Shown here piece after piece: positions 30,094-46,027 of a stretch of 64,000 nucleotides of DNA; the stretch's first letter is position 1, and the number at the start of each line of letters is the position of its first letter. This DNA is from a virus: IMG/VR virus record IMGVR_UViG_3300045988_115953; one strand, written 5' to 3'. The notes under the pieces were generated by a model. It did no database searches and was not told the DNA's origin. It saw nothing but the letters and a program-made list of their open reading frames with translations. The translations under genes and the position numbers were made by a program.

Positions 30094-30458
30094 GGGTTGT
30101 CAAGCTCGATACTGACGTAGATTTGGCAGAAATCGTAGGCGAACTGCTTGAGTGGCTTGCCTGCGGCTTCTGCCTTTCTTGTTTCCTCGCTGAGGGTTTC
30201 GAGGTCGGGTGGCGGGAGCTGCGGCTGAGGGGTCAGCTGTAAGGCTTCGTCGTCGAAACGGAGTAAGATGCGGATGAACTCGCGTTGGAGGTCGTCGTAG
30301 GATGTGATGTCGCCGGCTGCTGCTGCGTAGAGCGCTTCCATCGCGAGCTTGTCATACTTGCTGCGCAATGCTGCCATCTGCTTGGCTTCCGGCGGAAGCT
30401 GGCTGTGCAGCTCCTCGGCTCTGGCCTTGAGGTTCTGTAGGTGTTCTTCGTTGTCCAT
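30075..30458 (-). CDS. hypothetical helical protein
   Basis: Start refined to ATG 30458 (MDNEEHLQNLKARAEEL). Convergent with integrase 1, with a 19-nt overlap. Confidence 0.45.
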   Translation of the reverse strand: MDNEEHLQNLKARAEELHSQLPPEAKQMAALRSKYDKLAMEALYAAAAGDITSYDDLQREFIRILLRFDDEALQLTPQPQLPPPDLETLSEETRKAEAAGKPLKQFAYDFCQIYVSIELDNPQLPST

Positions 30459-30506
30459 ATCTGTTTTGCTGTTTAAAAAAAATAAAAAAATGACACACAC
30501 GCTTCA

Positions 30507-30740
30507 CAGCTCTCGCGTGCGAGAGTGTGAGTATATAGATGTTATGTATAGCTATTAGGATATATGAATGTATATGAATATATACTAATAGCTATATATA
30601 ATATCTATATATATATAGTGCGATCGCATGCAATCGCATAGGCATAATCGGACGCATTGATAATCAGTGAGTTACGACGATAAAAATACGTCGGAAAATA
30701 CGTCTGATTATGCGATTTATGCGATCGCATTTTTCGCATG
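30507..30740. promoter_or_regulatory. palindrome- and repeat-rich spacer
   Basis: Near-palindrome CACAGCTCTCGCGTGCGAGAGTGTG (~30507-30531), a TA-rich run with TATATGAAT x2, and perfect palindromes TGCGATCGCA (~30619-30628) and ATGCGATCGCAT (~30719-30730) plus extra ATGCGAT half-sites. Confidence 0.4.
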
Positions 30741-30755
30741 TTTTCGGAGGTGTTT

Positions 30756-31790
30756 TTACTGGTCTTCGGGATAGTCTTTTCCGACCGCATGGAGGGCGTT
30801 CATCTCGCGTTCGGCGCGTTCTGCTCCGGGTATCTGGAAGGCTGCGAATGTCTCGGGTGAGAGTCCGATTTCTCCGACGATGTAACGCTGCGTCATGGAG
30901 ATGTTGGGGACGTTGCCTGACATGTGTCCCATGCAGAGGGCTATCTGCTCGATGGGGATGCCTTTGAGCGCGAGGTTGGTGGCGAAGGAGCGGCGACCGG
31001 TGTGTGAGGAGACGAACTCCCACTTGTGTCCTCTCTGCGTGCGTCCTGCGCGGAAGACCTTGGTGATGGTGCCTATTCCGCAGGCTCGGCAGATGTCGCG
31101 TATGTTGTCGTTGTAGCATCTGACGGAGATTTCTCTCGGCTCGGTGGGGGATACGCGTTGCAGATAGATGCGCAGCCACGGATGGATGGGGACCTTGACG
31201 ACGGTCTTGGTCTTGTGCGAGACGTACGAGATGACGCGTCCGTCCTCGCTGATGTTGTCCGGCGAGAGTGTGAGGCAGTCGGAGAGGCGTGCTCCGCACA
31301 GGCATTCGAGCATGAAGATGCGCTTGGCGTGCTTGGCTGCTTTGGTGCGTGGCGTGAACTCGTGGATGCGCCGTATCTCGTCGTCGGTGAGCGCCACGGA
31401 CTGCGACGGGACTTTCTTTGTGCGCAGGACTGTCCCGAAATTGAGTGACGGGACGGGCTTGGAGGAGTTTTCGCGTATGATGGCGTTGACTTCGGCGAAG
31501 ATGGTCTTCGCTGAGTTTGGCGCGTATGATGACGCTATCTCCTCTCGGAAGTCGCGTAGGTTGTCGTCGGTGAGGTCTTCCCACATGGGCGGGCGTCCGA
31601 CTATGCCCTTGAAGATGTTGACCACCTTTACTCGTCCCGGATGTTTCCATATCCAGGCTCCGTAGAAGGTGTGGCGCCAGGGATAGCCGTCGTATGTGGC
31701 GAAATAGCCTTGTCGGATGGCATTGGCGTACTTTTCCTGCTGTTCGGGAGTGAGCATCTCCTGCCAGCGTCTTGTCTTGAGTTGTGTCAT
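30756..31790 (-). CDS. tyrosine recombinase 2
   Basis: 344 aa. C-terminal TGRRSFATNLALKGIPIEQIALCMGHMSGNVPNISMTQRYI carries the R...HxxR-like...Y catalytic pattern. A minus-strand TACCTTTG box at 31831-31838 lies upstream. Confidence 0.8.
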   Translation of the reverse strand: MTQLKTRRWQEMLTPEQQEKYANAIRQGYFATYDGYPWRHTFYGAWIWKHPGRVKVVNIFKGIVGRPPMWEDLTDDNLRDFREEIASSYAPNSAKTIFAEVNAIIRENSSKPVPSLNFGTVLRTKKVPSQSVALTDDEIRRIHEFTPRTKAAKHAKRIFMLECLCGARLSDCLTLSPDNISEDGRVISYVSHKTKTVVKVPIHPWLRIYLQRVSPTEPREISVRCYNDNIRDICRACGIGTITKVFRAGRTQRGHKWEFVSSHTGRRSFATNLALKGIPIEQIALCMGHMSGNVPNISMTQRYIVGEIGLSPETFAAFQIPGAERAEREMNALHAVGKDYPEDQ

Positions 31791-31931
31791 AATATGATGG
31801 ATTAAGACTTCCTCATCTCTTTCCCTTTTGCAAAGGTATAATATTATAATATAATATGGATGGGAAGTGGATGGTTTAACTTGGTTTTAACATTGTGCGC
31901 ATCTGGATGTGCTTTTTGGCATTAAACGGAA

Positions 31932-31972
31932 AATCCGCAATAAGGGACTTTTTGTGTCGGTTATTGCGGATT
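31932..31972 (-). terminator. rho-independent terminator of the lipoprotein gene
   Basis: AATCCGCAATAA-N17-TTATTGCGGATT (12-bp stem), followed on the minus strand by TTTTCCGTTT. Confidence 0.6.
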
Positions 31973-31986
31973 CATTGGGATACGAT

Positions 31987-32586
31987 TTACTGGTTGTAAA
32001 ACAGATTTTTGAGATGATATTTTTCTACGATGCTGTCTTGTAGAGCAACAAAGACAAGCATGGAATAAGTATCGTTTCCCCAACCTGGGGCAGCCTCAGA
32101 CTTGGTTATGGTGAGAGAAACCGTTTTTGTAGGAGATTCCCATGTGTATTCTTGAGATTTCCTCTTAAACAGCTTCTGGTCGTCTTCTTCCGGTGAACCT
32201 ACAGTCATTTTGTACTGGCGGGCAGACATGTACTTGAAGAATTTGGTTACATCGGACTGAAAAGCGTCTTTGTTAGCATAAGGATCGCTGATGTACGACA
32301 AGCTGTTGACACGACCATCCTTATGGCGTATTAAAGCCTGACATTTAAAGGCTATACCTGCAAATGTGTTGTCAGTAAGCAGATAGAAGTTTTCGTAGTC
32401 TATCTCTGGTACTGCCAATCCTTTCTTCACAAGATTAAGGACGGTGTCTCCCATCTGGATTTTTTCATTCAGGTAAAGACTACTGTCTGCTTTTGGGAGG
32501 TTCTCGGCTTTTGATGGATTTCCTTCACAAGAGAATGACAGGGCAACAATGGCGAGCGGAATAAATGGAAGCTTTTTTGATTTCAT
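31987..32586 (-). CDS. lipoprotein (moron candidate)
   Basis: Signal peptide with lipobox (AIVALSFS|C). Has its own terminator. Confidence 0.6.
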   Translation of the reverse strand: MKSKKLPFIPLAIVALSFSCEGNPSKAENLPKADSSLYLNEKIQMGDTVLNLVKKGLAVPEIDYENFYLLTDNTFAGIAFKCQALIRHKDGRVNSLSYISDPYANKDAFQSDVTKFFKYMSARQYKMTVGSPEEDDQKLFKRKSQEYTWESPTKTVSLTITKSEAAPGWGNDTYSMLVFVALQDSIVEKYHLKNLFYNQ

Positions 32587-32708
32587 AATTTTAAGAAGAT
32601 AATTGTTATAAGTGTGGCCTCTGTAATTTCAAGATAGGTTGTTCTTTGCGTGAGACTACAAAATATTTAAGAGAGGAAGTTTGCATAATAGTTGTAAGTG
32701 GCTCAGGT

Positions 32709-32765
32709 GGGCCTTACTGGGCCTATCTGAGCCTCTTTAGGTGATGGGCCTCGCTGGGCCTCTTT
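32709..32765 (+). repeat. 10-bp-phased RRGCCT array (5 units)
   Basis: GGGCCT-TACT-GGGCCT-ATCT-GAGCCT-CTTT ... GGGCCT-CGCT-GGGCCT-CTTT. Confidence 0.6.
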
Positions 32766-33132
32766 ATCTGATGTGGTCGGCTATGCGGAGGACCTTGTGC
32801 TTGCGGTGGAGGTCGGCAATCTCGTCGCGGAGCTGTTCGATCGTGCGCTTCAATCCGGCGTTTGCGGCGTCCCTGCGCTCGATTTCGGCATGGAGGTTCT
32901 TGACGGTGTCTTGTAGCTTGCCGATGCGGTAATTGAGCATATTGTTATCGCTCTTCGCTTTTTCTGCCTGTCTTTGTAACTCGGCTTCGCCTGTATTGCT
33001 CTTTCGGAGGGTGTCGTTCTCTTTGCGAAGCATGCAGATGAGGTCGAGGAGCTTCTGATAGTTGCGTAGGATGTGGAGCATCTGATGCTCGAATGGTACG
33101 TCTTCGTTGATTTTTCTTTGTGGTCTATACAT
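32764..33132 (-). CDS. coiled-coil protein
   Basis: 122 aa with heptad-like, Q/E/K/L-rich sequence. Confidence 0.5.
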   Translation of the reverse strand: MYRPQRKINEDVPFEHQMLHILRNYQKLLDLICMLRKENDTLRKSNTGEAELQRQAEKAKSDNNMLNYRIGKLQDTVKNLHAEIERRDAANAGLKRTIEQLRDEIADLHRKHKVLRIADHIR

Positions 33133-33417
33133 ATTATAATGTCTTTAAAGTCGGTTTTTCTCTTCTTGTGTGATGGTTCCGCCTCTTGTCGGTAGGCAGT
33201 CGAGGACGATGCCTTTGTAGGACTTGGCGTGATGGGCTTCGAGGATGTCGGCTTCCGCATGATCGTCCAGCATGCACATAGCAATTCCTTACCTTGTTTC
33301 GGCTTTAAGGTCAGAACGACCCACGGATAGAGGAAGCTGTCGGCGTCTGTGATGGTATACATTTGTTAAAACTGTTAATGTTTGTGAATGGGTATTGCAT
33401 ATTGGTTTTTTAATGAC

Positions 33418-33425
33418 TACATTTG
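33418..33425 (+). promoter_or_regulatory. candidate -7 box for the repeat-mimic RNA
   Basis: TACATTTG matches the Bacteroidota TAnnTTTG motif, 18 nt before unit U1. Confidence 0.35.
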
Positions 33426-33442
33426 CAATGTCTTCGGAGGGG

Positions 33443-33504
33443 CTATTTAAATCGTACCTTTATGGAATCGCGATTTTTTAATTGTACTTTTATGGAATTG
33501 AAAT
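33443..33504 (+). CRISPR. two tandem solitary repeat units U1/U2 resembling 30-nt type I-B/III-family CRISPR repeats
   Basis: U2 (33475-33504) is TTTTTAATTGTACTTTTATGGAATTGAAAT. Compare the GTTTTAATT...TATGG...AATTGAAAT repeat family, which has an ATTGAAAT 5'-handle. U1 (33443-33474, CTATTTAAATCGTACCTTTATGGAATCGCGAT) is 23/30 identical to U2 but has a changed 3' end. There is no spacer between them. Confidence 0.5.
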
Positions 33505-33518
33505 AAAAGACACCCTCC

Positions 33519-33552
33519 GTTGACTGTCAGCCTTCGGGCTGTGGATTGAAAC
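33519..33552 (+). CRISPR. solitary type I-C-like CRISPR repeat unit (U3)
   Basis: GTTGACTGTCAGCCTTCGGGCTGTGGATTGAAAC: a 5-bp stem with a TTCG loop, followed by TGGATTGAAAC. That 11-mer is identical to the 5' handle of type I-C repeats such as GTCGCGCCCCGCACGGGCGCGTGGATTGAAAC. Confidence 0.7.
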
Positions 33553-33585
33553 GCTCACAAAGAGCTAATTTCTACTATCGTAGAT
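33553..33585 (+). CRISPR. solitary type V-A (Cas12a)-like repeat unit (U4)
   Basis: GCTCACAAAGAGCTAATTTCTACTATCGTAGAT ends in AATTTCTAC-TATC-GTAGAT. This is the canonical Cas12a crRNA handle (AAUUUCUAC-loop-GUAGAU). Confidence 0.7.
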
Positions 33586-33606
33586 TCGAGACCAATGGTC
33601 TTTCGC

Positions 33607-33631
33607 AGCCCGGCTTAGGTCGGGCTTTTTT
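33607..33631 (+). terminator. rho-independent terminator of the repeat-mimic RNA
   Basis: AGCCCG-GCTTAGGT-CGGGCT followed by TTTTTT. The T-run is on the plus strand only. Confidence 0.6.
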
Positions 33632-33788
33632 ATTTCTGATTCCTCCAAATCTCGTAATCATCCCAAGACTCAAAGCCAAGATAACCATCTACGACTGCCA
33701 CAACTTTAGAAGCCCAAGGCATCGCATCAATGGCTTTCTTCCTCCAATAGCTTGTATGTTTTTGACATTCATAAAAACCTGTTTTCAT
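33630..33788 (-). CDS. 52-aa hypothetical protein (below ORF-track cutoff)
   Basis: Hand-translated: MKTGFYECQKHTSYWRKKAIDAMPWASKVVAVVDGYLGFESWDDYEIWRNQK. Convergent with the repeat-mimic RNA. Confidence 0.4.
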   Translation of the reverse strand: MKTGFYECQKHTSYWRKKAIDAMPWASKVVAVVDGYLGFESWDDYEIWRNQK

Positions 33789-33832
33789 ATATTTGACTTA
33801 CCGTGATGTCGAGGGCTGAATAAGTTATAATA

Positions 33833-34261
33833 TTATTTATATGTCATTGCTCTTTCTTTTGTAACGTCACGAGCGAGAACCTTCGCTCCATCACAGAAGT
33901 CCTGATTAAACAGAAAATCCTCTTCTTCGTCAGAGAGAGCCGGAACACACTCGCAGTTGTCAGACATCGGAGACGTCTTGTAATATTCTTCTCCTTTTAT
34001 AGTCACAACATCGTCACTCTTGTATAAGTCCGCATCTTCGGGATTTACCGATGAGCAAAGCACATACACAGGGTTGTCTTTGAAATCTCTCTCATATAAA
34101 ACCGTGCCGTTAGGAATAAACACCATGAGATCGTTGTCATACTTGAAAAAACACTTCTCGGCACCTCCGTCAAAATACCTTGCCGGTACAATCCGACAGT
34201 TCGGTACAACATGGATGTTCTTACCCAAGTCTTCGATTATCGTATATAATTCGTTCTCCAT
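33833..34261 (-). CDS. hypothetical acidic protein
   Basis: 142-aa ORF preceded by the conserved 5'-UTR hairpin shared with the next cassette. Confidence 0.5.
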   Translation of the reverse strand: MENELYTIIEDLGKNIHVVPNCRIVPARYFDGGAEKCFFKYDNDLMVFIPNGTVLYERDFKDNPVYVLCSSVNPEDADLYKSDDVVTIKGEEYYKTSPMSDNCECVPALSDEEEDFLFNQDFCDGAKVLARDVTKERAMTYK

Positions 34262-34335
34262 ATAATCCCGCTTGCCGTGTTGCGGTAGGGCTTGGTTAAT
34301 GGTGCCAGGGCGAGCCTGGCGGTTTTAGGCGGGGA

Positions 34336-34878
34336 TTATAGTTTATGGTAATTACGAAGATGCCCGCTTGGTGCTCCGTACTGGAATCGAGTGACTTGTT
34401 CGCCTCTACATTCAATAGGGCTGTCGAGCGTGATTGTGGTGGCTGTCTTGCCGTCACAGTCGTACTGGTTGCAGGTGTAGCCGATGGTCATGGAAGGAAG
34501 CTGCCACACGCCCCAGTTGATATCGTTGAGATAGCGGAGGAGGATGCGGATGTTGCCAATCGTGGATTCGACAGTTTCTCCTGTAAATACTGCGAGGTAT
34601 TCTTCCTCGTGCCGTTTCTTGTTTGCGAGTGCTAATTGCCGGGAGTGTTGTCTGTCTTGCTCGTTACGAAGAAGCAGCTGCTTGCGGTCTTCTGCGAACT
34701 GCTCGTCGGTGACATCCTTACACTTCGCGAGGATGGCATCAATGCCGCCCTGCGAGACGATGAAGGAGCCGGCGTTTTCCAGTGGCTTCATAGTTGATGC
34801 CTTGGTGATGAGCAATGTTCCGTCGGGATTCTGCTCGACAAGGAAGCTCTTCTTGCTTGTGAAATACATTTTCTTCAT
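34336..34878 (-). CDS. hypothetical protein
   Basis: Start refined to ATG 34878 (MKKMYFTSKKSF). Same conserved 5'-UTR hairpin. Confidence 0.5.
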   Translation of the reverse strand: MKKMYFTSKKSFLVEQNPDGTLLITKASTMKPLENAGSFIVSQGGIDAILAKCKDVTDEQFAEDRKQLLLRNEQDRQHSRQLALANKKRHEEEYLAVFTGETVESTIGNIRILLRYLNDINWGVWQLPSMTIGYTCNQYDCDGKTATTITLDSPIECRGEQVTRFQYGAPSGHLRNYHKL

Positions 34879-34946
34879 AATTATTCCGTTTGCCGTGTTA
34901 CGGGAGGGCTTGGTTATATAGGGCCTCCGAAGAGGCTGTTTTAGGG

Positions 34947-35546
34947 TTAGACGAGGGTGACGGTGTAGGCGTGGTGTGGCAGCTGTTTGTATTGACCAAA
35001 CCATGTCTTATATTTGCGCGAAACGATGAAGCCGAGCATCTTGAGAAGACCGATGGCATTGGTGGCGTATGGCTCGTCTATGACGATGAATGGGGAGTCA
35101 GAAGAATCGGCGCCAATAACGTCTTTTATAAATTTAGGGTAAGGGTACTCGTTTATAATTTGTTCATACCTCTCTTCGTCGCAATATTCTTCTTCTGCCC
35201 AAATACAGGTAGCATCTGTCCTTACATAGTCTCTCCACCATTCCCGGTGCATTTCATAATATTTGACGATTTCTCCATCCTCGTTTTCTTCCTCTTTCCA
35301 AATCTCTTTGTTGACTATCTCAATATAACGCGTGACTACGGGGACAGTGGAAATGAAAAGGGGGGCTTTGGGGGCGTTATTGTAATCAAGAAAACGCATT
35401 GTTCTGATTGTGAGCTTTGCTGACACGTCATTGTCGCGGAAGAACTCGACCACCGCGTTCTGGAATGCAGACGTGTCGAAGGGTGGGGCTTTGAAGCCTT
35501 TCTCTTTAAGGATGTCCTGTGCCCGGACTAATTTGGTTACTGACAT
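34947..35546 (-). CDS. hypothetical protein
   Basis: 199-aa ORF with a CAATTATG start context. Confidence 0.5.
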   Translation of the reverse strand: MSVTKLVRAQDILKEKGFKAPPFDTSAFQNAVVEFFRDNDVSAKLTIRTMRFLDYNNAPKAPLFISTVPVVTRYIEIVNKEIWKEEENEDGEIVKYYEMHREWWRDYVRTDATCIWAEEEYCDEERYEQIINEYPYPKFIKDVIGADSSDSPFIVIDEPYATNAIGLLKMLGFIVSRKYKTWFGQYKQLPHHAYTVTLV

Positions 35547-36229
35547 AATTGTTTTATTGTTTGGTTGATAGCGGCGAAGGAGGAGATGTGTGTGCCTCGC
35601 TACACCTCTTCAGGCTGGCTGTGCTAAGATTGTGAATACAAAGGTAGTGATTTTGCGGTTATCGGGCAGTCTTTTGGTGATGTTTTTTTTCAAGGAAAAG
35701 CGGACACGCTCTGAGGATGTGTTGCATTTCTGTAAGTGAATGATCGAAGACCGTTCTGAGAAACAGATCTATACCGGCAGATGCTGCTGGTAAAGATCTG
35801 TTGATGCAAACAGTCTGGAGTGAATGAATCCTCCTTGCGTGTCCTGCGGGATGCAATTCCCGTGGTGCGGACTTCTCATGAGTGGCGGCACATGGCTGTA
35901 GGTGTGTGATGTATCCAGAACGTGTGCGGGATGTGTGAGGCGGATGCCGCCTTGAACATCCCGCATTAAAGCTCTGGATGCTGAACGGGATTCTTTTGAA
36001 GAACGCTTCCCTGTGCTTGGGATGGTTGAGAGGCTGAGCCTTGCTGAGCCTATCTGAGGGGCGGCTGTGATGTCTTGGCACGTGTCTGTAGGTGAATGAT
36101 GTTGCCTGCGTAGCAGAAGGCAGCGGTCCCAGTGGGTAACACTCGGGACCGTGCCTTCTTGCTATTGCCGGTAGCTGAATGTGACATCCTTGCTGCGCGA
36201 TGCCCTGTGCCGGGCTGGTGATGCGGCTC
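35547..36229. ncRNA. ORF-free structured segment downstream of the RT (three box+hairpin modules A-C)
   Basis: 683 nt with only out-of-context ORFs. Conserved boxes at 35730-35744, 35896-35910 and 36086-36100, each adjacent to a long composite hairpin (e.g. AGAAGGCACGGTCCC/GGGACCG-C-TGCCTTCT at ~36109-36153). Strand of any transcript unknown. Confidence 0.4.
36026..36061 (+). repeat. 10-bp-phased RRGCCT array
   Basis: GAGGCT-GAGCCT-TGCT-GAGCCT-ATCT-GAGGGG, inside the RT-downstream ORF-free segment. Confidence 0.5.
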
Positions 36230-37495
36230 TTAGAGGTTGGCTACGAGGGTGTCGTAGGCGGCTTTGCTGGTAAGCAGGGCCTTGCGTGCGCAGCCTAATG
36301 TGAGATAGCCGGTGATGATGGGGGCGGTCTTGCTGCGGTTGGCGGTGACGTTTCGTCCTCGTCCCCGCTGTATGCAGCCGACCTGCTGATTCTTGACGAA
36401 CCCTATGCCTCCTATCTTTCGCTTGCCCGTCTTGACGGCTCGGAGGCAGTCCATGACGAACGTGTTGAGCGTATAGACGTCCTCTTCGGCGTTGATGATG
36501 GGCAGGACCTGCGTGGACCATGAATGTCCTTCGTACCCCTTGTAGAGATAGCGGTTGACGGAGTTTATGGCTTTTTGCAGGGTGACGTCACGCTTCTTGA
36601 CTGTGCGCTTCTCGATTTCCTTCTGGAATGTCTTGATGCGCGTGGACGAGAGCGAGATGCTGCTGCCCTTGATGGAGAATCCGAGGAACTTGAACCAATG
36701 GTCAGCGTCGAGGAATTCTACCTTCTTGGGATTGAGCTTCATCTGCATCTTCGCCAGCTCCTCCTCCATGATGCGCTTGGCTTCCTGCCAGTCCTCGCCC
36801 ACGAAGATGGCGTCGTCCGAATAACGGCAGTAGACGCCGCGCAGACGGGACAGGCGCTCGTCAATGTGATAGAGGACCACGTCGGCAAGCCATGAGGCTA
36901 CGCTGCATCCCTGCTTGAGCGACTGGTATCTCTCGGAGAGAGTGCCGTCGGTATCGAAATAGAGATTGCAGTGGTAGTAAGCGCGTAGGACGTCTATCAG
37001 AGCGGAATGACCGTGACGAAGCTCTACCTGATCGAACGCCCAGTCGATGTACGACAGGAGCACCGTATCGAAATACTTGGACAGGTCGGACTTGAAGCCT
37101 CCGATGCGTCCTTTCGCGAAGGATATATGTCGGGATATGTTCTGTACGACGCGTCCGCATCCGATGCCCTTCTGATATGATGTGCAGCAGGGATGGACCA
37201 TTTCGGGTGTCAGCTCGAAGAGGAGGTCGTTGGCAATGGAGAGGAGTATGCGGTCGGCAGGCTCGTTGATGTAGACGGTGCGGAATTCTCCGTTGTCCTT
37301 CGGTATGAGAGCCGTGTGAGGTGGCATTATCCTGTACTTGCCGTCGCGTATCTTCTGATACATCAAGGCACGTGCCTCGGGTGTGGTGAGCTGATAGAGC
37401 GTGGCTTTGTTGATGTCCTTGTCGAGTCCTTTCTGTATGGCGTACTGCCAACGCTCGGACTGGAAGGCCATCTGTAAGATTTTGTCTTCTTTCAT
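36230..37495 (-). CDS. reverse transcriptase (orphan; class not assignable by eye)
   Basis: 421 aa with RT motifs: IPKDNGEFRTV (1), ADRILLSIANDLL (2), GFKSDLSKYFDTV (3/A), LKQGCSVASWLADVVL (4/B), YCRYSDDAIFVG (5/C, YxDD), LNPKKVEFL (6), FKFLGFSI (7). Has a ~135-aa C-terminal extension. Confidence 0.85.
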   Translation of the reverse strand: MKEDKILQMAFQSERWQYAIQKGLDKDINKATLYQLTTPEARALMYQKIRDGKYRIMPPHTALIPKDNGEFRTVYINEPADRILLSIANDLLFELTPEMVHPCCTSYQKGIGCGRVVQNISRHISFAKGRIGGFKSDLSKYFDTVLLSYIDWAFDQVELRHGHSALIDVLRAYYHCNLYFDTDGTLSERYQSLKQGCSVASWLADVVLYHIDERLSRLRGVYCRYSDDAIFVGEDWQEAKRIMEEELAKMQMKLNPKKVEFLDADHWFKFLGFSIKGSSISLSSTRIKTFQKEIEKRTVKKRDVTLQKAINSVNRYLYKGYEGHSWSTQVLPIINAEEDVYTLNTFVMDCLRAVKTGKRKIGGIGFVKNQQVGCIQRGRGRNVTANRSKTAPIITGYLTLGCARKALLTSKAAYDTLVANL

Positions 37496-37556
37496 AATTC
37501 TTTGGATTTTATGGTTAATAGAGCGTGAAACATAATGTTTTACGCAGTTTTTGGCG

Positions 37557-37883
37557 GTGAGGCTCAGAGGAGCGGTGCCTGGATATAAACGGATGATCTG
37601 GTACTGTCATCTGTAGTGACGTCGCCGGGATGATATGGCCGGCGACGTCCCGATTGTGACAGTGCCGATGAATGTTCTTCTGCCTCCTCACGGGAAGGAC
37701 GACAAATCCTTTGCGGTGCAGCCGTGGGCTTGGAGTCTGGCTGTAGGCGAATGATCTGACGACTGCGGTTCGAGGTCAGGACCCAGCCACGGTAATCGAC
37801 CTGGCTGGTTCCTGAGTCTCAGAGAGCAGCGTGTGAACGATGCACACCCACTGCACGGCGGTGACTTTCGGGGTGATGACGAA
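37557..37883. ncRNA. ORF-free structured segment occupying one gene slot upstream of the RT (module D plus nested hairpin)
   Basis: 327 nt between a canonical boundary hairpin (GCGTGAAAC/GTTTTACGC, ~37523-37545) and the stop of 37884-38897. Nested hairpin at 37600-37666 (outer GGTACTGTCA/TGACAGTGCC, inner GACGTCGCCGG/CCGGCGACGTC). Box at 37741-37755. Confidence 0.4.
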
Positions 37884-38897
37884 CTATCGGTCAGCCCACT
37901 CGTCAATCTTGGCGCTCACGGACATTTCAGAGTCGGCGATGAGCTGCTTGAGCACGCCCAGCAAGCGCCATCCCTCATCTGCGCGGGCATACTCGGCAGT
38001 CTTGCTTTCGAGATAATCAATAGTCTTGGTTGTGTGCATCGTGCTGTGAGGACCCTGCTTGAAGCGTGCTCCGTGGAACAGGACCATGTTGCGCATGGTG
38101 AAGTAAGCACCGGAACCCTTGTAGGCGTTGATGAACGCCTCGGACTGCTTGGTGTCGGCAGGGAGACGCTTCATAAGCTTGTTGAACTTGACAACAAGAC
38201 GATAGAGACGTTCTCCGTTGACGTCATTCATTGCAAGGGCAAGGTCGCGGAAAGGGCTGTAAAGCTTGGACTCCAAGTCAGAGACGAAGATATTCTCTCT
38301 GCTAAGACGCACGTAGGGCTTGCCCTTGCAAGTGTGAGTGCCTTGGCGCAACAGCTTTTCGATGTAAGAGCGGAGCTTCTGAACATAGTCGAACACCATG
38401 TATGAAGCTACCCTGCCGTTGAACCAAAGGGCACGCTGCTCGTAGCAGACCTTGTCCTTGTGCTTGAGCATCTTGTACTGGTCGAGCAGTTCCTTCTCAA
38501 GCATGCGCCACTGATAGGCGTAGCCCTTGTCCTGCAAGAGGGCGTTGAAGGAGACGTTCTGATGCTCCATGCGGTCGAGCATGTGGAACATCTGTGACAT
38601 TACCCAACGGCGGTAGAGCGTGTAGTTGCGGATGTGACCTCCTCCTGCGATGCTCGCGAAGACGGGATCGTCGTCCGTAACCTGTACGGGGACTCCGTCA
38701 ACGACCTTGACGACCATCTCCTCTCCCATGGGAAAGTAGTTGGAAACGTCTACGCCTGCTGTCTTGAGAGCTGCGATGCGTGCTGCCGCTGACTTTGCCT
38801 TTGGGGCTGTTGTGTTCTGCGACTGTGCCTGTGTGTCGGCGTTAGCTACCTCTGTCATTGTGAACTCACCTGAAATGATAAGATTTCTCTTTTTCAT
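37884..38897 (-). CDS. hypothetical protein
   Basis: 337-aa ORF with a GAATTATG start context. No family recognised. Confidence 0.55.
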   Translation of the reverse strand: MKKRNLIISGEFTMTEVANADTQAQSQNTTAPKAKSAAARIAALKTAGVDVSNYFPMGEEMVVKVVDGVPVQVTDDDPVFASIAGGGHIRNYTLYRRWVMSQMFHMLDRMEHQNVSFNALLQDKGYAYQWRMLEKELLDQYKMLKHKDKVCYEQRALWFNGRVASYMVFDYVQKLRSYIEKLLRQGTHTCKGKPYVRLSRENIFVSDLESKLYSPFRDLALAMNDVNGERLYRLVVKFNKLMKRLPADTKQSEAFINAYKGSGAYFTMRNMVLFHGARFKQGPHSTMHTTKTIDYLESKTAEYARADEGWRLLGVLKQLIADSEMSVSAKIDEWADR

Positions 38898-38995
38898 AAT
38901 TCAAAGATTTAAAATTGTTAATAATGTTGGTTGATTGGTGGGCGAGGGGATGCCTCGTCCTGTTTTTGGGGGTGAGAATGGCAGGGGGATAGGAT

Positions 38996-39035
38996 TGGCC
39001 TCACTGGGCCTGCCTAAGCCTTACTAAGCCTTTTG
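38996..39035 (+). repeat. 10-bp-phased RRGCCT array (4 units)
   Basis: TGGCCT-CACT-GGGCCT-GCCT-AAGCCT-TACT-AAGCCT-TTTG. Confidence 0.6.
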
Positions 39036-39043
39036 GGGTGTCC

Positions 39044-39499
39044 TTAATCTTCTTTTGACTTTGGCTCTACCCATTGTCGGAGGATGATGAGGTCCTTGTC
39101 GTTCGGGGACTGCCAAAACCAGCTGCCCCACTTGCTTTGCCATTGGAGCTGTCCGTCAAACAACATGAGAAGGACGAAGACTTCGAGCTGGCAGCGTGCC
39201 ACTTCGCGAGAAACACCGTAGAGCATATCGTGGTCAGAGAGGTCTTTCTCAGGGAGAGCCTTGAAATAGCTGCGTCGGTGTGACTCGGACCGCTCAGAGG
39301 GGATGGAGTGCTTGTACTGCTGGTAATACCTTTCGATTTCGCGGAGCATAACGGACCCGTTGAGAGGGAGGATGTTGACATCGTCGAGACTGACAAACTC
39401 TCTGTCCAGACGGAGTGTGCGCTTCTCGAAATTGACGGTGAAACGTGAGCCGAGTTCTACGGCTTGTGAGACGTTAAGCATAAATTGCGTGTGTGTCAT
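39044..39499 (-). CDS. hypothetical protein
   Basis: Start refined to ATG 39499 (MTHTQFMLNV), with an AGAATTATG context. Confidence 0.5.
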   Translation of the reverse strand: MTHTQFMLNVSQAVELGSRFTVNFEKRTLRLDREFVSLDDVNILPLNGSVMLREIERYYQQYKHSIPSERSESHRRSYFKALPEKDLSDHDMLYGVSREVARCQLEVFVLLMLFDGQLQWQSKWGSWFWQSPNDKDLIILRQWVEPKSKED

Positions 39500-39532
39500 A
39501 ATTCTTGATGTTTTGGTTTGTTGGCGGTACAC

Positions 39533-39866
39533 TCAAAGGGAATGTCGCATGGCTATATGACGTTGATGTTATCCCGTGTGAAGCACGCGGAGATGTCTGA
39601 GTGATAGCTTCAGACATCTCGCGTATCTCGTACGGGGGAACCAAATAATCCCTCCTTGTGTACCCATTCAGGCTGCGATACCTATTGCTGGCTCATAATC
39701 ATGTCTTGATGGTTGATGATGTGGCGTGACGAAGACTTGGCGCATTACTGTAGGTCGTTGATGTATCCAGCGGTAGACTCATCCGGGTAGTGTCCCGGAT
39801 GAGACGCTGGAGACTGAATCCTGTCTTCGCTCACGCCTGTTTTAGGCTGCGCTACCTTGGCTTAGG
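39533..39866. ncRNA. ORF-free structured segment occupying one gene slot (module E)
   Basis: 334 nt. Contains an 11-bp hairpin GAGATGTCTGA/TCAGACATCTC (39590-39620), a box at 39736-39763, and a nested hairpin at 39767-39810 (CCAGCG...CATCCGGG/CCCGGATG...CGCTGG). Confidence 0.4.
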
Positions 39867-40088
39867 TTATAACTGCTGCCATTTGGTTGTGCCGTTGGCC
39901 TCCTCTGTGCGGTAGTAATCTTGGTCTTCTTCGACTTCGATGCAGTTGTCTACATAATCGTCACTTGTCAGCACGATGTCGTTTTTGAGATAAGCATCTC
40001 TTACACGCTGTACAGCTTCTGCTTCGCTGTCGGCATTCACACTTACCACCTTGTTGAGAAACTCGGTGATTGATACATAATACTTCAT
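39867..40088 (-). CDS. small acidic hypothetical protein
   Basis: Start refined to ATG 40088 (MKYYVSITEFL), 73 aa. Confidence 0.45.
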   Translation of the reverse strand: MKYYVSITEFLNKVVSVNADSEAEAVQRVRDAYLKNDIVLTSDDYVDNCIEVEEDQDYYRTEEANGTTKWQQL

Positions 40089-40165
40089 ATTTGTTTTTTT
40101 ATTTGGTTGAACTTGCAGAGGGATTACTCCCTCGGTTTTTAGGCTGCAACACTCGGCTGCAATTT

Positions 40166-40846
40166 TTAAAGTTGGGCAGGGCTTACTGTCCGCACGCTGT
40201 AATAAGGTGTATTGAAGGGGTATTTGACCTCGTTGACGCAATACATCACGGAGGGCGTGCTCATAGTGAGCGTGTCTTGACAAATGACATTGGCGTTCAT
40301 GCCGTGAGCCATGAGATTGAGGGCGCACATCTTGCAGGCTATGGGGTCAACGTCTTGTGCAATGTATCGGAAACGGCGTCCTGCCGAATGGTCGAGGCTG
40401 CTCTTCTCCATATAATGAGCGAGAAGAAGGCGACCGCTGCCAGAGGCGCAGTCGTTGACTATACCGCTCTGCTTTTCGTTCAACGAAGATATGCGTGACA
40501 TGATGTCGGCTACGCTTGGCGGTGTGAAAAACTGTCCTGTATGGGACGCCTTGCCACGTGTGAGATACAACTCCTCGTAGAGTATGCCGAACACGTCAAG
40601 CCACTTGCCTTGCTCCATAGCTGTAGCAACGTCTGTGAGCCACAGGGTAGCGAGACCGGCAAATTCGGGACACTTTTGTGTGCAGTCAAGAAGATGCTGA
40701 TGATAGGTGTCGGGACCGGACTGGAAAGCCTTTACGCTGAAAAACTCGAGCAGATAGTCGAGAAAATCGTTAAGGGCCAACTCGTGAGGACGATGATTCA
40801 TTTCTGCCTGTGCAGAAATGATTTCGATGTACTTTTTCTTTTCCAT
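40166..40846 (-). CDS. N6-adenine DNA-methyltransferase-like SAM-binding domain protein (apparently truncated before the NPPY/F motif)
   Basis: TGQFFTPPSVADIM (motif X-like), NDCASGSGRLL (motif I) and CKMCALNLMAHGM fit HsdM/N6_Mtase. The ORF ends ~25 aa later and no NPP(Y/F) is seen. Confidence 0.55.
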   Translation of the reverse strand: MEKKKYIEIISAQAEMNHRPHELALNDFLDYLLEFFSVKAFQSGPDTYHQHLLDCTQKCPEFAGLATLWLTDVATAMEQGKWLDVFGILYEELYLTRGKASHTGQFFTPPSVADIMSRISSLNEKQSGIVNDCASGSGRLLLAHYMEKSSLDHSAGRRFRYIAQDVDPIACKMCALNLMAHGMNANVICQDTLTMSTPSVMYCVNEVKYPFNTPYYSVRTVSPAQL

Positions 40847-40922
40847 AATTCTTGTTTTTTAATGGTTGATGGTGCCACGCACAAAGGCGTGGCGGTTTTC
40901 AGGCTGCTCCGTAAGTCCTTTT

Positions 40923-41912
40923 TTAGGCTGTTTCGGAATCGACGTAGCTGCGTGCCGTATCGTAAATCTCGGCAATCTGTTTTTTATCAAGACGATAGTA
41001 GCCCTTAATATTGTCCGAAAATTCTTCGAGCGTAAGCTTCGGGTCGTTATAGAGGGACTCGCAACAATATTCGAGACACTCGTCGTAATCCCAACACGTG
41101 CAGTAACGCTCCCAATAGTTGTCGCTGCCATAGCTGGCACAGCCGCATTCTTCGTCAGGTTCGTAAGGATAGACGGACGTGCAATGCTCGATAAGGTGGC
41201 AGACAAAGCTGTAACACTTCTGGACATCCTCGATAACTGTGAACTCATGGTCGGTGTGCGGTTCGTAATAACCGCAGGACATATTGATACACGATACGGT
41301 GACGCCATTGCTGCGCAATGCCTCGACATCGGTCATAAGACCCGTGCTGACGGCATATCCGTAGCTTGTGCAGTCGGCATCCTTGATGAACTCGTCCGAA
41401 CAGATACTGTCAAAGGAAATACTTGTGACCATATCGCTGTTGCCGCGACGGTCGATCTGAGCACAGAAGCGACAATCGCTGAAGAAGCTGATGTCGGCGG
41501 CACTTGAGCCTACGCATCCAATCTCTTCGCCCACGAAGAACGCACACTTGAGAACGTCGTAACGCTCAAGGCATTGCAGGGCGATGAATATGCCGTTCTT
41601 GTCGTCGGCACCGAGACCGCACTGCTTGCGGACTTTTGGCGAGTAGCCGAAGATGACTCCTTGGCTCTCAACGCACACGAAGTCCTTGGGGTGAAGATGC
41701 TGCACCTGATCCATGTGTGCGCACAGGCAAGGATAGCTCTCTGCCTCGCCTTTGGTGACGAAGAGATTGCCGTACTCGTCCTGTGTGACAATGGCTGAGG
41801 GAACAGTTTTCTTGATGTGTTTCTTGATGAAACGACGCATGCGCTTTTCTTCGTCACTTGGCGAGAATACGCAATAAAGACTCTTGAGCAGGTCAAAATT
41901 CAATTCTTTCAT
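40923..41912 (-). CDS. M42/M20-type metallopeptidase-like protein with Cys/Tyr/acidic C-terminal extension
   Basis: Metal-ligand-like motifs CAHMDQV, GADDKNG and GEEIGCVGS. The last ~90 aa are rich in C, Y, D and E. Confidence 0.5.
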   Translation of the reverse strand: MKELNFDLLKSLYCVFSPSDEEKRMRRFIKKHIKKTVPSAIVTQDEYGNLFVTKGEAESYPCLCAHMDQVQHLHPKDFVCVESQGVIFGYSPKVRKQCGLGADDKNGIFIALQCLERYDVLKCAFFVGEEIGCVGSSAADISFFSDCRFCAQIDRRGNSDMVTSISFDSICSDEFIKDADCTSYGYAVSTGLMTDVEALRSNGVTVSCINMSCGYYEPHTDHEFTVIEDVQKCYSFVCHLIEHCTSVYPYEPDEECGCASYGSDNYWERYCTCWDYDECLEYCCESLYNDPKLTLEEFSDNIKGYYRLDKKQIAEIYDTARSYVDSETA

Positions 41913-41984
41913 AATTCTATTGTTTTTAAATCTAAATTGGTTGTACTTGGAAGGCAGGAGGAGGAAGGTCCTCCCGCCTTGGTT

Positions 41985-43622
41985 TTAGGCTACAACATGC
42001 TCTTGTTGTTTTCTGTACTCGGCTTCGGCTTTGTCGGCGCACTCCTCGGAGCAATAGTCTTCGCCGGTGATGTCTGAATAGCACTCGCTGTCATAATCGC
42101 CAGGATACCACTCGCCGCATTCGGCGCATTTGGAGTCTTTTTCGCTGTCAAGCCATGAATCGGCGATGCTGCTCCATACGGCATTGTCCTCATGGATATA
42201 TCCGTCATGGTAATCAGACCATTTGCAGTCTGATTCGAGCTGATATTCGCCGTCAATGTCCTCTACGCAGTCGTCAAGGAGGCGATATTCCTCCTCTTTT
42301 TCCACGTAGCAGCATTCGTCGTCAAGCAGATAAGCGTCCTCGTAGTCAGACCAGTTCCATTGGTAGTCTCCGCTTGCGCGACTTCCGTTGATCTGGATGC
42401 GTCTACCATGATATATGGCGTTTTCGCTTTGGCTGCTATACATCCAATCTTCGTAGTAGTCGTCGTAAGTACTATCGCCTTCAGGAATAATGCACTCGTT
42501 CCACTCTGAATAATTGCCATCCAGCTCGAAATATTCATCCGTGGAATCGAGTTCGTAATCGTAATACGCAGAAGAGTTGTTGCAGGACGTGTTGTCGTTG
42601 TAGTCGTAATAGACGAACGAATCCTGATAACTGAGAACGTCGTTGTGTTCGAGATTACACTCAATATAGAGAGAAAGGTCGTGCATTGACTCACCGTTGT
42701 TTCGAACAAAGTTCCTATTGTCGTGACAACTGGCACCGACACGCTTGTAGCCGTCAATCTCGCCTGCCTTGATGAGCTTGTCAACAAGTATCTGCTTGAG
42801 GACATCGTCTTGACCGGAAGAGTATTGACGCTCGGCGAGGCGGTAATGATTGTTGTTCTCGTCCCATACGTCAGTATAGACAATGCAACGGGCGACAATC
42901 ATATCGTCTTCGTCGGTGATGTAGGCAGCCTTGGCTTTTATGGCGTCACGATAGAAGGTGTGATGTCCTTTGTCTGTCATGCAGCTTCCAAAGTCGCCAA
43001 GACAGCGGTCACTATCATAGATAGCCTCGAAATCGTCGTCAACATGCAGGGTGTAATCGTTGCTGACACGCTGTTCTGCATAGACCTGCCAATCACGTGC
43101 GAACTCTTCGCCTATCCAGCGTTTGAGCTGTTCGGGCATATATTCGCGCGGGATGCGGTTTTCCTCGATACATCTGGAAATAAGCTTGCCTGCCTTCATC
43201 TTGAAGATTCTTCCACGCTCTATATTCTTGTAACGTATAGACTTGACGTCTCCGTCGGTGCATACACCGCGTAGGGTGTCAAGACTTAGTGTAGTGGAAT
43301 AGAGAGTGTAGGGGAAATCTTTGTCAAAACTAAGGATGTACAATGTGTCTTCGCTATCGGGGTCATGGAGTGCAATGTCGCTTACCATGTGCTTAGCAAA
43401 GTTCTTCAGGTCGTCCATGTTGGTGGCGCGGAGGTAGTCGCAGTTGTCAGTCAACCTGTCATCCTGTTCCTTGAAACCGAGCCACCAGTGGAAGAGCTTT
43501 CTGTTCTTGAGGCAAGCCAAGAGAATCTTGTTCTTGCGTGACACAACGCCGTTGCCGTGCTTTACGACACCAAACAACTGCTTGAACTCGTCGTAATTCT
43601 TGAAACTCTTAATGTAAATCAT
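41985..43622 (-). CDS. large hypothetical protein with extremely acidic D/E/Y-rich C-terminal half
   Basis: 545 aa. From residue ~330 onward the sequence is dominated by D, E, Y, S and C (e.g. YYDYELDSTDEYFELDGNYSEW). Confidence 0.55.
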   Translation of the reverse strand: MIYIKSFKNYDEFKQLFGVVKHGNGVVSRKNKILLACLKNRKLFHWWLGFKEQDDRLTDNCDYLRATNMDDLKNFAKHMVSDIALHDPDSEDTLYILSFDKDFPYTLYSTTLSLDTLRGVCTDGDVKSIRYKNIERGRIFKMKAGKLISRCIEENRIPREYMPEQLKRWIGEEFARDWQVYAEQRVSNDYTLHVDDDFEAIYDSDRCLGDFGSCMTDKGHHTFYRDAIKAKAAYITDEDDMIVARCIVYTDVWDENNNHYRLAERQYSSGQDDVLKQILVDKLIKAGEIDGYKRVGASCHDNRNFVRNNGESMHDLSLYIECNLEHNDVLSYQDSFVYYDYNDNTSCNNSSAYYDYELDSTDEYFELDGNYSEWNECIIPEGDSTYDDYYEDWMYSSQSENAIYHGRRIQINGSRASGDYQWNWSDYEDAYLLDDECCYVEKEEEYRLLDDCVEDIDGEYQLESDCKWSDYHDGYIHEDNAVWSSIADSWLDSEKDSKCAECGEWYPGDYDSECYSDITGEDYCSEECADKAEAEYRKQQEHVVA

Positions 43623-43758
43623 ATTCTATTGTTTTTAAATGGTTGATAATAGAAATCCCCACTCTCATTGTTGAGGGTGGGGATTGAGTTTCAGGCGATA
43701 AGTTTTCTTAGTACACTCTCCTTTTCGGGTGTGTCACACTTTTTGGATTTGTTTAGAC

Positions 43759-44130
43759 TTAATAACCACGATACAGGATTCTTTTGACAAGCGGATACTC
43801 GTAATCTCCGTTCTGCGCTACGCAATAGGTAAAGCTTGGCTTGTTGTTCCAAAGCTCGACCCACAGACGGGAAAGTATACCGCGGCTGAGTATTCTATTA
43901 TACTTCATGTTGTAGAATACTGTGTCGTACTTTCTTTTCTGGCAGCACAGTGCACGGCAGAATCCGTCAGACAGCTCACGTAGGGCGTCGTCGGTAAGCT
44001 CAAAATCAATCCACTCGCCGGACTTGCGGTCGTATACTTTCCGCTTGCTCAGAAAATCGTCCATTGTAAACTGCTTCTTGTCGTACGCTCTAAGCAGCCC
44101 GGCAAGAGTCTTGTAAGTTCTTTTCTTCAT
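43759..44130 (-). CDS. hypothetical protein
   Basis: Start refined to ATG 44130 (MKKRTYKTLAGLL). Confidence 0.5.
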   Translation of the reverse strand: MKKRTYKTLAGLLRAYDKKQFTMDDFLSKRKVYDRKSGEWIDFELTDDALRELSDGFCRALCCQKRKYDTVFYNMKYNRILSRGILSRLWVELWNNKPSFTYCVAQNGDYEYPLVKRILYRGY

Positions 44131-44195
44131 AATCGTATGTTGGTTGGTAATGTTCCTGTGTGTTATCCACACAGGATGATTCGGGCAGCAATGTG

Positions 44196-44378
44196 CTAAT
44201 CGTGATAAGCTATGCTCACGATTTCGATTATGGCACGATGGAAGTCACGCTCCGCGCGTGGGTCTTCGTAACCGGTCATGCGGTTGTTGTGCATCTTACG
44301 GGCTGCAATCTTGGCTCTACTGATTTCTGCGAGCAGTGTACGCTCGAAATTCTTGTCGCATTTTCTGTCTCTAAGCAT
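44196..44378 (-). CDS. small hypothetical protein
   Basis: 60-aa ORF with a GAATTATG context. Confidence 0.4.
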   Translation of the reverse strand: MLRDRKCDKNFERTLLAEISRAKIAARKMHNNRMTGYEDPRAERDFHRAIIEIVSIAYHD

Positions 44379-44438
44379 AATTCAAATTGGTTTTTATGGT
44401 TTGTGTGTGCCTCCGAGGATGGAGGCTTTTCAGGTCGG

Positions 44439-44801
44439 TTACTTTTCGTCCGTGTTGTACTCGAAGATGATATTGCCAGAGCACGTATAATTGAAGTACA
44501 AGACGATGGTGTTCAGCTTTGTGTTAGCATCAAGGGAATTTTCGTTGACACCGGTGCGGACGATTTCGAGCCATTGGCTAATCCGCGACTTTATGTCCGA
44601 GCTGAGAGGATGGTCCAGGACTTCGAAGTGTACGACATTTGAGCCGTATATGTACTTCATCTTGACAACGTGATGATGGACAAATCCTATCAGCACGCCG
44701 TGTCCGTCGCAGCAATACGTGTTATCGTCGAAAAGATCGTCGAAGAGAACGTCGCTGCATAGGTCTTTCTCGTTGATGGGGCAGGGGATGTGTATTTTCA
44801 T
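44439..44801 (-). CDS. hypothetical protein
   Basis: Start refined to ATG 44801 (MKIHIPCPINEKDL). Confidence 0.5.
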   Translation of the reverse strand: MKIHIPCPINEKDLCSDVLFDDLFDDNTYCCDGHGVLIGFVHHHVVKMKYIYGSNVVHFEVLDHPLSSDIKSRISQWLEIVRTGVNENSLDANTKLNTIVLYFNYTCSGNIIFEYNTDEK

Positions 44802-44870
44802 AATCCGTAATGTTTTAAGTGGTTGATAATTGTTAAGGATGCTACTTGCTGACAAATAGCATCATTATAT

Positions 44871-45119
44871 TCAGGCGATGCGGTAAGCGGAAACGACATG
44901 GTCGTAAAAACCACGCGCGGTGTCTTCATCCATGAGAGGAGAGTCTACGAGTGCATGGCCGATTTTGTCATTGATACACACGCTGTATCTGTCTCCCCAC
45001 GTCCACTTGATAATCTTCACGGTGTACTGATAGTTGGATTTCTCGTCTATCACGTCACAAGCGAGCAATGGGTCGTTCGTTAGGATTTCATCTAACTCAT
45101 TCCTTTCCTTTTCTGTCAT
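44871..45119 (-). CDS. hypothetical protein
   Basis: 82-aa ORF with an AGAATTATG context. Confidence 0.5.
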   Translation of the reverse strand: MTEKERNELDEILTNDPLLACDVIDEKSNYQYTVKIIKWTWGDRYSVCINDKIGHALVDSPLMDEDTARGFYDHVVSAYRIA

Positions 45120-45210
45120 AATTCTTGCGGTTTTGGTTTGTGCGTGATGGAGAATTTCATCCCCATCGTTTTAGGCTTTACAAACAGGAGGTGTTGCCCG
45201 TACTAAAGAG

Positions 45211-45672: not shown

Positions 45673-45735
45673 AATTCTTGATGTTTTGGTTCGTAGAAAT
45701 CCTTACTCTTACGGGTAAGGATTGTTTTGGGCTTG

Positions 45736-45975: not shown

Positions 45976-46027
45976 AATTCTTTGTTTGTTGGTTCGTAGT
46001 GGGGAGGCTGGCTCCCCTTGGTTTAGG

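Follow-up and report, generated by a model that had tools for sequence, protein, structure and literature searches.

UG27 is a group of Class 2 UG/Abi reverse transcriptases (RTs) from gut phages of Bacteroidetes and Firmicutes, which the main text of Mestre et al. (2022; PMC9226505) counts in 1,447 dereplicated gut-phage genomes, alongside clusters 337 and 346 and without enrichment in defense islands. The same text predicts a conserved UG27 non-coding RNA (ncRNA), not experimentally tested there, that forms three long stem-loops in the gap separating the RT from its neighbor, and the existence of a UG27 ncRNA with stem-loops has thus been a known prediction since 2022. Class 2 systems, according to a 2026 preprint, use a short single-stranded template with A-B-A′ microhomology, framed by stem-loops that are anchored at their bases. 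Here, we analyzed a 64-kb stretch of DNA (the window, i.e., the whole stretch under analysis) from virus record IMGVR_UViG_3300045988_115953, in which an RT gene cluster runs in the order RTas346-RTas337-RT-p199 on the minus strand. The intergenic segments of this cluster hold a repeated module, in which a conserved box lies 3′ of a long hairpin. We conclude with high confidence that these modules are the repeating units of the structured ncRNA of a phage UG27 RT system.

The RT of the cluster belongs to UG27 (Class 2 UG/Abi) and has both signature accessory genes beside it. Its match to the PADLOC RT_UG27 profile spans residues 3–421 of 421, with UG26 as the runner-up profile at 112.8 bits, and its nearest characterized relatives by PADLOC are UG26, Drt9, and UG17/DRT10. 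RTas337 and RTas346 adjoin each other and the RT on the same strand (Table 1). Close relatives of the locus all come from IMG/VR viral contigs of 47–167 kb, and one relative is the isolated Bacteroides phage BS-TP1. A full-length RT profile match, clusters 337 and 346, long stem-loops beside the RT, and a phage context, the features by which a UG27 system is recognized, are all present at this locus.

The intergenic parts of the RT gene cluster hold all seven modules of the window: three follow the RT, another two lie in the gap from RTas337 to the RT, and a final pair is upstream of RTas346. Read on the minus strand, which carries every gene around them, a module consists of a purine-rich flank ending in ATTYA, a hairpin, and, 1–5 nt past the stem throughout, a box of the form ATCATTCACCTACAG-N4-GYGCCAAG; stem-loops downstream of the box lie at variable distances (locus L007, by eye). 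Similar 5′ flanks precede most modules in the window and in loci L007, L081, L010, and L060 (by inspection, without statistics). A first-pass annotation of the window, made from the letters alone, had listed five plus-strand copies of the box and a sixth, partial one, each followed by a hairpin. The five full copies are where it had placed them: a search of the 64 kb with the core CTGTAGGYGWWTGAT at two or fewer mismatches gave five matches, all on the plus strand (35730, 35896, 36086, 37741, and 39748), and the remaining matches require three mismatches, which is chance level. The CTTGGCRC half is intact in copies 3–5 and degenerate in copies 1 and 2. We struck the partial copy at 48596–48626, which has only GGTGCCAAG in common with the box, lacks the ATC and TAYAG parts, and is missed both by a position weight matrix (PWM) and by R1, a calibrated sequence model built from other lineages only, with the window lineage excluded. 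Degenerate boxes at 37573–37597 and 39543–39567 had been overlooked and, added to the five, bring the count to seven. R1 places exactly these seven modules at the top of its matches in the window (E = 2e-4 to 0.27); all are minus-strand matches, and nothing else falls below E = 0.9. The annotated order, box before hairpin, has to be reversed because the genes lie on the minus strand, where the box sits 3′ of the hairpin.

Window hairpins are 50–75 nt long (median across related loci, 71 nt) and are built alike, with an internal loop between a basal stem of ~9 bp and an inner stem, in agreement with the outer and inner stems described in the first-pass annotation. Their folding z-scores range from −4.1 to −9.2 as minus-strand RNA and from −4.5 to −7.6 as plus-strand DNA. 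Inverted repeats and these scores together place a hairpin beside every box, as had been claimed, and the hairpin sequences are indeed unrelated: the seven have no similarity among themselves or to the rest of the window. We also considered that the hairpins might duplicate, or be complementary to, sequence elsewhere in the phage and rejected this, having found no matches above chance. A 140-aa open reading frame (ORF) across modules 1 and 2 was rejected as coding, since its frame is not kept among relatives, in which a decamer repeat shows indels of 10 and 21 nt. This 10-nt tandem repeat (TGRGCCTNNC on the plus strand; AGGCTCAGCA-like on the minus strand) occurs in three intergenic spots (36035–36058, 38995–39028, and 32708–32768). 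In the linker after box 3, its copy number varies from ~1 to 4 across the window and its 99% relatives, which produces the 10- and 21-nt indels.

We then compared the box across 80 IMG/VR phage loci whose RTs are 71%–99% identical to the window RT. The literal box occurs in only three of them, all 99% relatives, and the lineage at 72%–74% RT identity carries a generalized form, ATCA-N6-TAYAG-N4-GYGCC. On the minus strand, the generalized box reads ATCR-N6/7-TAHAG-N2-AYG-YGCC, ~25 nt. With a refined PWM, the 80 UG27 loci and the window gave 502 sense matches versus 0 antisense matches. Related loci typically hold 7–9 modules, mostly in a tandem array with a period of ~160–190 nt that begins directly after the RT stop codon, with two further modules beyond RTas337; arrays of 7–9 modules cover 1.2 kb without an intervening gene. 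The box is kept even at 60%–65% RT identity, in BS-TP1 (as ATCG-N7-TAMAG), MT835776 (as ATCR-N6-TAAAG), and L110. In BS-TP1 (L081, PQ571274.1; 4995–7606), eight modules fill a 1.35-kb unannotated gap after the RT; the UG27 RT of this phage is annotated as a "tail protein." Among 71 representative boxes, ATC and a T are invariant and three A's and a G are near-invariant, giving ATC-N7-TA-N-A-N3-A-N-G.

The box is strictly associated with UG27. When all IMG/VR viral contigs (2.9 million) were scanned, without bias toward RT loci, with a two-box pattern, 47 stretches were returned and 46 of these carry UG27 cluster genes, counted as a homolog of the RT, RTas337, RTas346, or p199; in the one remaining stretch, the match sits at the edge. 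The two-box scan of bacterial and archaeal genomes (596 Gb) gave seven matches versus ~4 by chance (hand estimate): two, on Segatella/Prevotella metagenome-assembled genome contigs, have an RT and 6–9 modules, and the other five come without RT or array. Outside UG27 clusters, neither the window nor the flanks of the 80 loci gave a box, and modules are co-oriented with the RT in two different gene orders. Hence, the view in the first-pass annotation that the repeats belong to the RT and are not chance is upheld, as the array of boxes and hairpins occurs only beside UG27 RT genes and always in the RT orientation. The motif scan it had called for, over this genome and related phages, came out the same way: the best seven matches in the window are the modules, and related phages carry the box beside the RT. 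Its proposal of a family of RNA genes needs correction: the modules are parts of the operon's non-coding stretches and not demonstrably separate RNA genes.

The hairpins are variable in sequence yet covarying, in line with the variable structured module that had been proposed. For 88% of the 80-nt stretches upstream of boxes, folding is better than the 1st percentile for random stretches drawn from these loci. In one orthologous module (32 distinct sequences), double compensatory changes are seen at 8 of 18 pairs, and 95.1% of cells are paired versus 81.8% after shuffling. The covariation score of this hairpin is 0.316 versus 0.102 when shuffled; none of 500 shuffles reached 0.316, and slid controls stayed at or below 0.117. 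The box itself pairs with its own upstream or downstream flank no better than with the flanks of unrelated modules and is therefore most likely single-stranded, as the first-pass annotation had it. Along the array, conservation is periodic, with boxes and linkers at the level of the RT gene and hairpin cores far lower. Mean pairwise identity is 0.96 at RT codon positions 1 and 2, 0.79 at position 3, 0.81 in boxes, 0.85 in linkers, and 0.63 in the hypervariable hairpin cores. Core divergences are bimodal, i.e., cores are discrete alleles between conserved flanks; misalignment may inflate these divergence values, and allele replacement is directly visible in the alignment. The cores also show an excess of A-T transversions (21% versus 7%; L004–L080 arrays, ~6264–7450). 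Coordinates shift between loci, which obscures any movement of cores between array positions.

Pairing in the hairpins is strand symmetric. Helix-interior wobble pairs make up 6.2% on the sense strand and 5.5% on the antisense strand, versus 14.3% in shuffles; being rare and equally so on both strands, they leave a complement that folds equally well. Single (1 × 1) mismatches are likewise balanced (80 G-T versus 101 A-C), as are the intermediates in covarying pairs (13 G-U versus 11 A-C), and GNRA or UNCG loops are enriched on neither strand of the hairpins. We therefore gave up identifying the RNA strand from wobble pairs, 1 × 1 mismatches, or tetraloops.

Given the location of the modules inside a co-oriented gene cluster, a sense RNA is presumably made from them: with the cluster genes on the minus strand, the intergenic stretches of RTas346-RTas337-RT-p199 are most likely transcribed along with them. 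On such an operon transcript, the RT, perhaps with RTas337 and RTas346, would recognize the conserved box together with the basal part of the hairpin beside it. DNA synthesis would start 3′ of the hairpin, and the RT would then copy the hairpin, so that each module would yield a distinct single-stranded DNA hairpin with the polarity of the window plus strand. A need for both the RNA and its complement to fold would account for the symmetric, wobble-free pairing, which is the expectation if a hairpin RNA is copied into a DNA hairpin. We give the template idea, that the module hairpin is copied by the RT, slightly less than an even chance; the overall reading, UG27 ncRNA modules that are docked by the RT and copied into DNA hairpins, is the one we lean toward, by a little more than an even chance.

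Several points weigh against hairpin copying. Every mechanistic step, from transcription through binding by the RT and priming at the box to a DNA hairpin as product, is inferred by us. The wobble test fails to identify the RNA strand, and the antisense strand folds 2.9 kcal/mol better on average. Unpaired hairpin bases are G-poor on the sense strand (G 11%–13%, C 23%–28%; all loci and the window), so the antisense molecule may be the selected one, possibly through selection on complementary DNA (cDNA). Symmetric Watson-Crick pairing is equally expected of a purely DNA-level element. Finally, characterized Class 2 RTs copy a short single-stranded template and not a hairpin (2026 preprint).

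This last point leads to a different division of labor, in which the box is the template, perhaps copied repeatedly, and the hairpins are scaffolds that anchor the RT, as in DRT2, DRT3, DRT9, and DRT10. The box is single-stranded and directly adjoins a stem, the RT has UG26, Drt9, and UG17/DRT10 as its nearest characterized PADLOC relatives, and the Class 2 logic of the 2026 preprint, a short single-stranded template between stem-loops, favors a box template over a copied hairpin. We nonetheless consider it unlikely. Many boxes resemble GCTAC-A-GCTAC on visual inspection, but there is no enrichment of A-B-A′ direct repeats: the mean longest repeat is 3.47 versus 3.64 in a column-shuffle null, with 1,820 of 2,000 shuffles as high or higher, and we dropped A-B-A′ as a feature of the box. 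Its conserved positions (ATC, TA-A, and A-G) are dispersed among free ones, which has the look of a recognition site more than of a template, and in modules inspected by eye, no stem-loop at a fixed distance was apparent 3′ of the box. A box template would also leave the avoidance of wobble pairs on both strands unexplained. Strand-symmetric, nearly pure Watson-Crick pairing is also accommodated if the modules act in DNA, with hairpins extruded from single strands or as cruciforms for replication, packaging, or recombination, like integron attC sites. The hairpins are significant under DNA energy parameters too, and the cores behave as discrete, exchangeable alleles between conserved flanks. 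However, modules are confined to UG27 clusters and co-oriented with the RT in two gene orders, which is hard to square with an origin or packaging site; no module lies elsewhere in the 64-kb window; and attC has paired core sites, whereas the conserved box lies beyond the stem. We judge a DNA-level role to be quite improbable.

The better folding of the antisense strand raises the question of whether the plus strand is the functional one, with the box as promoter or leader of a structured antisense RNA, which is the orientation given in the first-pass annotation. The plus strand folds slightly better, these intergenic regions also carry terminator-like hairpins with T-runs on it, and C is scarce at plus-strand positions left unpaired, a composition that resembles the loops of structured RNAs. 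Promoters, however, were not apparent: no sigma-70-type promoter overlaps the boxes, the GG-N10-GC spacing of sigma-54 fails, with TA instead of GC at the −12 position (read from the sequence), so that we rejected the box as a plus-strand sigma-54 promoter, and a Bacteroides-type TAnnTTTG was not seen by eye next to the one box checked. Module hairpins have no T-run after them on the plus strand, and 7–9 antisense promoters within one operon would be needed; we regard a functional plus strand as very unlikely. Still less weight goes to ordinary mRNA punctuation (processing, stability, or attenuation) unrelated to reverse transcription. The modules are intergenic, some lie 44–78 nt upstream of a start codon, and other genes of these phages also have intergenic hairpins. 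But those ordinary hairpins are short and come without a box, the box is nowhere outside UG27 clusters (window and flanks of 80 loci), and gene-free arrays of 7–9 modules over 1.2 kb do not fit such a role.

If the module hairpins are copied, one could go further and picture a cassette library, in which the UG27 RT turns 7–9 modules into 7–9 different single-stranded DNA hairpins, an array of retron-like units in which each DNA (or RNA) hairpin serves as a sequence-specific decoy or inhibitor of a host factor. We hold this extension to be rather improbable; were it true, the fast turnover of hairpin alleles would reflect an arms race, with the box serving the RT as a shared handle. A role in counter-defense, or in another phage function, is at this stage a guess. 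The definition of the unit (flank, hairpin, and 25-nt box), the invariant box positions, and the expected polarity of the cDNA provide handles for experiments, and BS-TP1 on Bacteroides salyersiae BG8 is an isolated phage-host pair with eight modules that can be used for them.

Table 1. Features of the UG27 gene cluster and its seven modules, in window coordinates
Feature	Position	Strand	Basis
p199 gene, 199 aa, downstream of the three-module stretch	34947–35546	−	No family match
Box 1, ATCATTCACTTACAGAAATGCAACA	35720–35744	−	Pattern with 1 mismatch; PWM 25.7 bits; R1 E = 0.0018
Hairpin 1 (9-bp basal stem, 5 × 5 internal loop, inner stem, triloop)	35748–35816	−	Inverted repeat I1; RNA z = −8.2; DNA z = −5.2
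5′ flank example, AAGGAGGATTCATTCA (purine-rich run, then ATTYA, just before the stem)	35821–35836	−	Read from sequence
Box 2, ATCACACACCTACAGCCATGTGCCGCC	35884–35910	−	Pattern; PWM 26.9 bits; R1 E = 0.00084
Hairpin 2	35913–35979	−	Inverted repeat I2; RNA z = −9.2; DNA z = −7.6
Box 3, ATCATTCACCTACAGACACGTGCCAAG	36074–36100	−	Exact pattern match; PWM 24.4 bits; R1 E = 0.0064
Hairpin 3	36105–36171	−	Inverted repeats I3/I5; RNA z = −6.3; DNA z = −5.7
Reverse transcriptase, UG27 group, 421 aa	36230–37495	−	PADLOC RT_UG27 698.6 bits, E = 7e-211; Pfam RVT_1
Box 4b, ATCATCCGTTTATATCCAGGCACCG, degenerate, adjoins hairpin 4b	37573–37597	−	PWM 18.4 bits; R1 E = 0.09
Hairpin 4b	37600–37666	−	Inverted repeats I10/I16; RNA z = −7.6; DNA z = −6.7
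Box 4, ATCATTCGCCTACAGCCAGACTCCAAG, degenerate 3′ half	37729–37755	−	Pattern; PWM 16.9 bits; R1 E = 0.27 (weakest of seven)
Hairpin 4	37759–37832	−	Inverted repeat I7; RNA z = −4.1; DNA z = −4.5
RTas337, UG27-associated protein, 337 aa	37884–38897	−	PADLOC RTas337 E = 3e-99
RTas346, UG27-associated protein, 151 aa	39044–39499	−	PADLOC RTas346 E = 4e-50
Box 5b, ATCAACGTCATATAGCCATGCGACA	39543–39567	−	PWM 31.2 bits; R1 E = 0.00023 (best window match)
Hairpin 5b	39573–39636	−	Inverted repeat I9; RNA z = −6.6; DNA z = −5.9
Box 5, ATCAACGACCTACAGTAATGCGCCAAG	39736–39762	−	Pattern; PWM 32.4 bits; R1 E = 0.00031
Hairpin 5	39763–39814	−	Inverted repeats I13/I18; RNA z = −6.4; DNA z = −7.6

The accessory proteins RTas337 and RTas346 are without Pfam, NCBIfam, or PHROG annotation. 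AlphaFold2 models were good (predicted local distance difference test scores of 79 for RTas337 and 89 for RTas346), but Foldseek gave no match to the PDB at E < 1 and a PDB sequence search was empty too, and we abandoned the attempt to derive their function from structure. In two RTas337 homologs (P0018 and P0025), the C-terminal ~60 residues are a borderline match to Pfam DUF5906 (27.8 bits versus a cutoff of 27.6), which the RTas337 of the window does not give. Homologs of p199 occupy the same position in several UG27 loci; from position only, p199 is possibly the "cluster 336" neighbor of Mestre et al. Adjoining the UG27 cluster on its upstream side and sharing its strand (39867–40846) are a DpnD/PcfM-like small protein and a 226-aa fragment of an N6-adenine methylase, which suggests an early or anti-restriction gene block.

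Other signals were seen in the window. Terminator-like hairpins with T-runs on the plus strand lie directly upstream of minus-strand start codons (37523–37545, 38940–38960, and 40118–40133) and read on the gene strand as an A-tract followed by a hairpin; they may be antisense insulation or a different kind of terminator. In L007, most small genes upstream of the RT have, after the stop codon, a hairpin without a following T-run. A conserved ACAAACCAAAACATCAAGAATTATG-like motif on the minus strand precedes the start codons of many genes, including those at 39499, 37495, 40846, and 45119, and is probably a translation-initiation or promoter-proximal signal of this phage group. Rfam, but not ARAGORN, reports a tRNA at 26805–26868 (minus strand; 37 bits), and a GGTTCGAATCC T-arm-like sequence lies at ~49240–49256 (minus strand) in the ORF-free stretch of 48.55–49.33 kb. 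Both fit the mention of tRNA-like elements in the first-pass annotation, but no link between these and the box was found.

Rfam has no family for the module elements; over 35400–40000, Rfam 15 gave only a chance-level Ocean-VII match (16 bits versus a gathering score of 53.5), and ARAGORN found no tRNA. We likewise rejected the box as a tRNA-like 3′ end (UUCA ... GCCA), as UUCA is not conserved across lineages and CCA only partly, with ARAGORN and Rfam both negative. A group II intron was excluded because no Rfam intron matched even at E ≤ 1 and TIGR04416 scored 97.5 bits against a cutoff of 300. The template RNA of diversity-generating retroelements (DGRs) resembles a module in having a template followed by a conserved 3′ segment where the RT could start. 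DGR membership was nevertheless rejected: no pair of template and variable repeats lies in 28000–48000, there are no direct repeats >38 nt and none like such a pair, and, unlike in DGRs, the neighboring genes tested gave no Pfam family match. Integron attC sites share with the modules an arrangement as same-orientation hairpin arrays in which shape is kept and sequence is free. The conserved sequences of attC are paired stem ends that act with an integrase, whereas the modules carry their box beyond the stem and are partnered by an RT.

Closer to the modules are DRT2, DRT3, DRT9, and DRT10, which have the same class of RT and a structured ncRNA beside the RT on the same strand; in both cases, stem-loops that may anchor the RT adjoin a single-stranded segment. 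Those systems have one ncRNA unit per RT, with DRT10 carrying two templates on one pseudo-symmetric ncRNA, whereas the loci described here have an array of 7–9 units. DRT systems also act in bacterial defense and show A-B-A′ microhomology, whereas the present system is phage-borne and has no A-B-A′ signal.

The UG27 ncRNA in the main text of Mestre et al. belongs to the same RT group, with clusters 337 and 346 and a phage context, and its three stem-loops match 35547–36229, which holds boxes 1–3. It is described there as one region of three stem-loops, whereas we find 7–9 modules per locus, relatives included, and modules also in the gaps upstream of the RT and of RTas346. Additions to that main text are thus the 3′ box and 5′ flank, the number of modules (7–9) and their occurrence in further gaps of the cluster, the hypervariability of the cores, and the symmetry of pairing between strands. 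A preprint dated 2026-09-24 (10.64898/2026.09.22.753630), probably treats much of the same matter, a DNA-hairpin product included, to judge from an abstract with the words "DNA hairpin" and from its term counts (UG27, 74; "UG27 ncRNA," 11; hairpin, 33; cDNA, 24; ssDNA, 5).

For the way in which the modules may work, the closest analog is the retron msr-msd. Retrons also have an RT beside an ncRNA with a long, sequence-variable hairpin, and the retron hairpin is copied into a DNA hairpin. The system of the window is not itself a retron: the best retron profiles score 46–49 bits versus 698.6 for UG27, and a flank-pairing test found no a1/a2 inverted repeats around the module. It differs further in having many units per RT and in placing its conserved element 3′ of the hairpin. 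If its hairpins are copied into DNA, the UG27 system would be a phage-encoded, multi-template relative of retrons.

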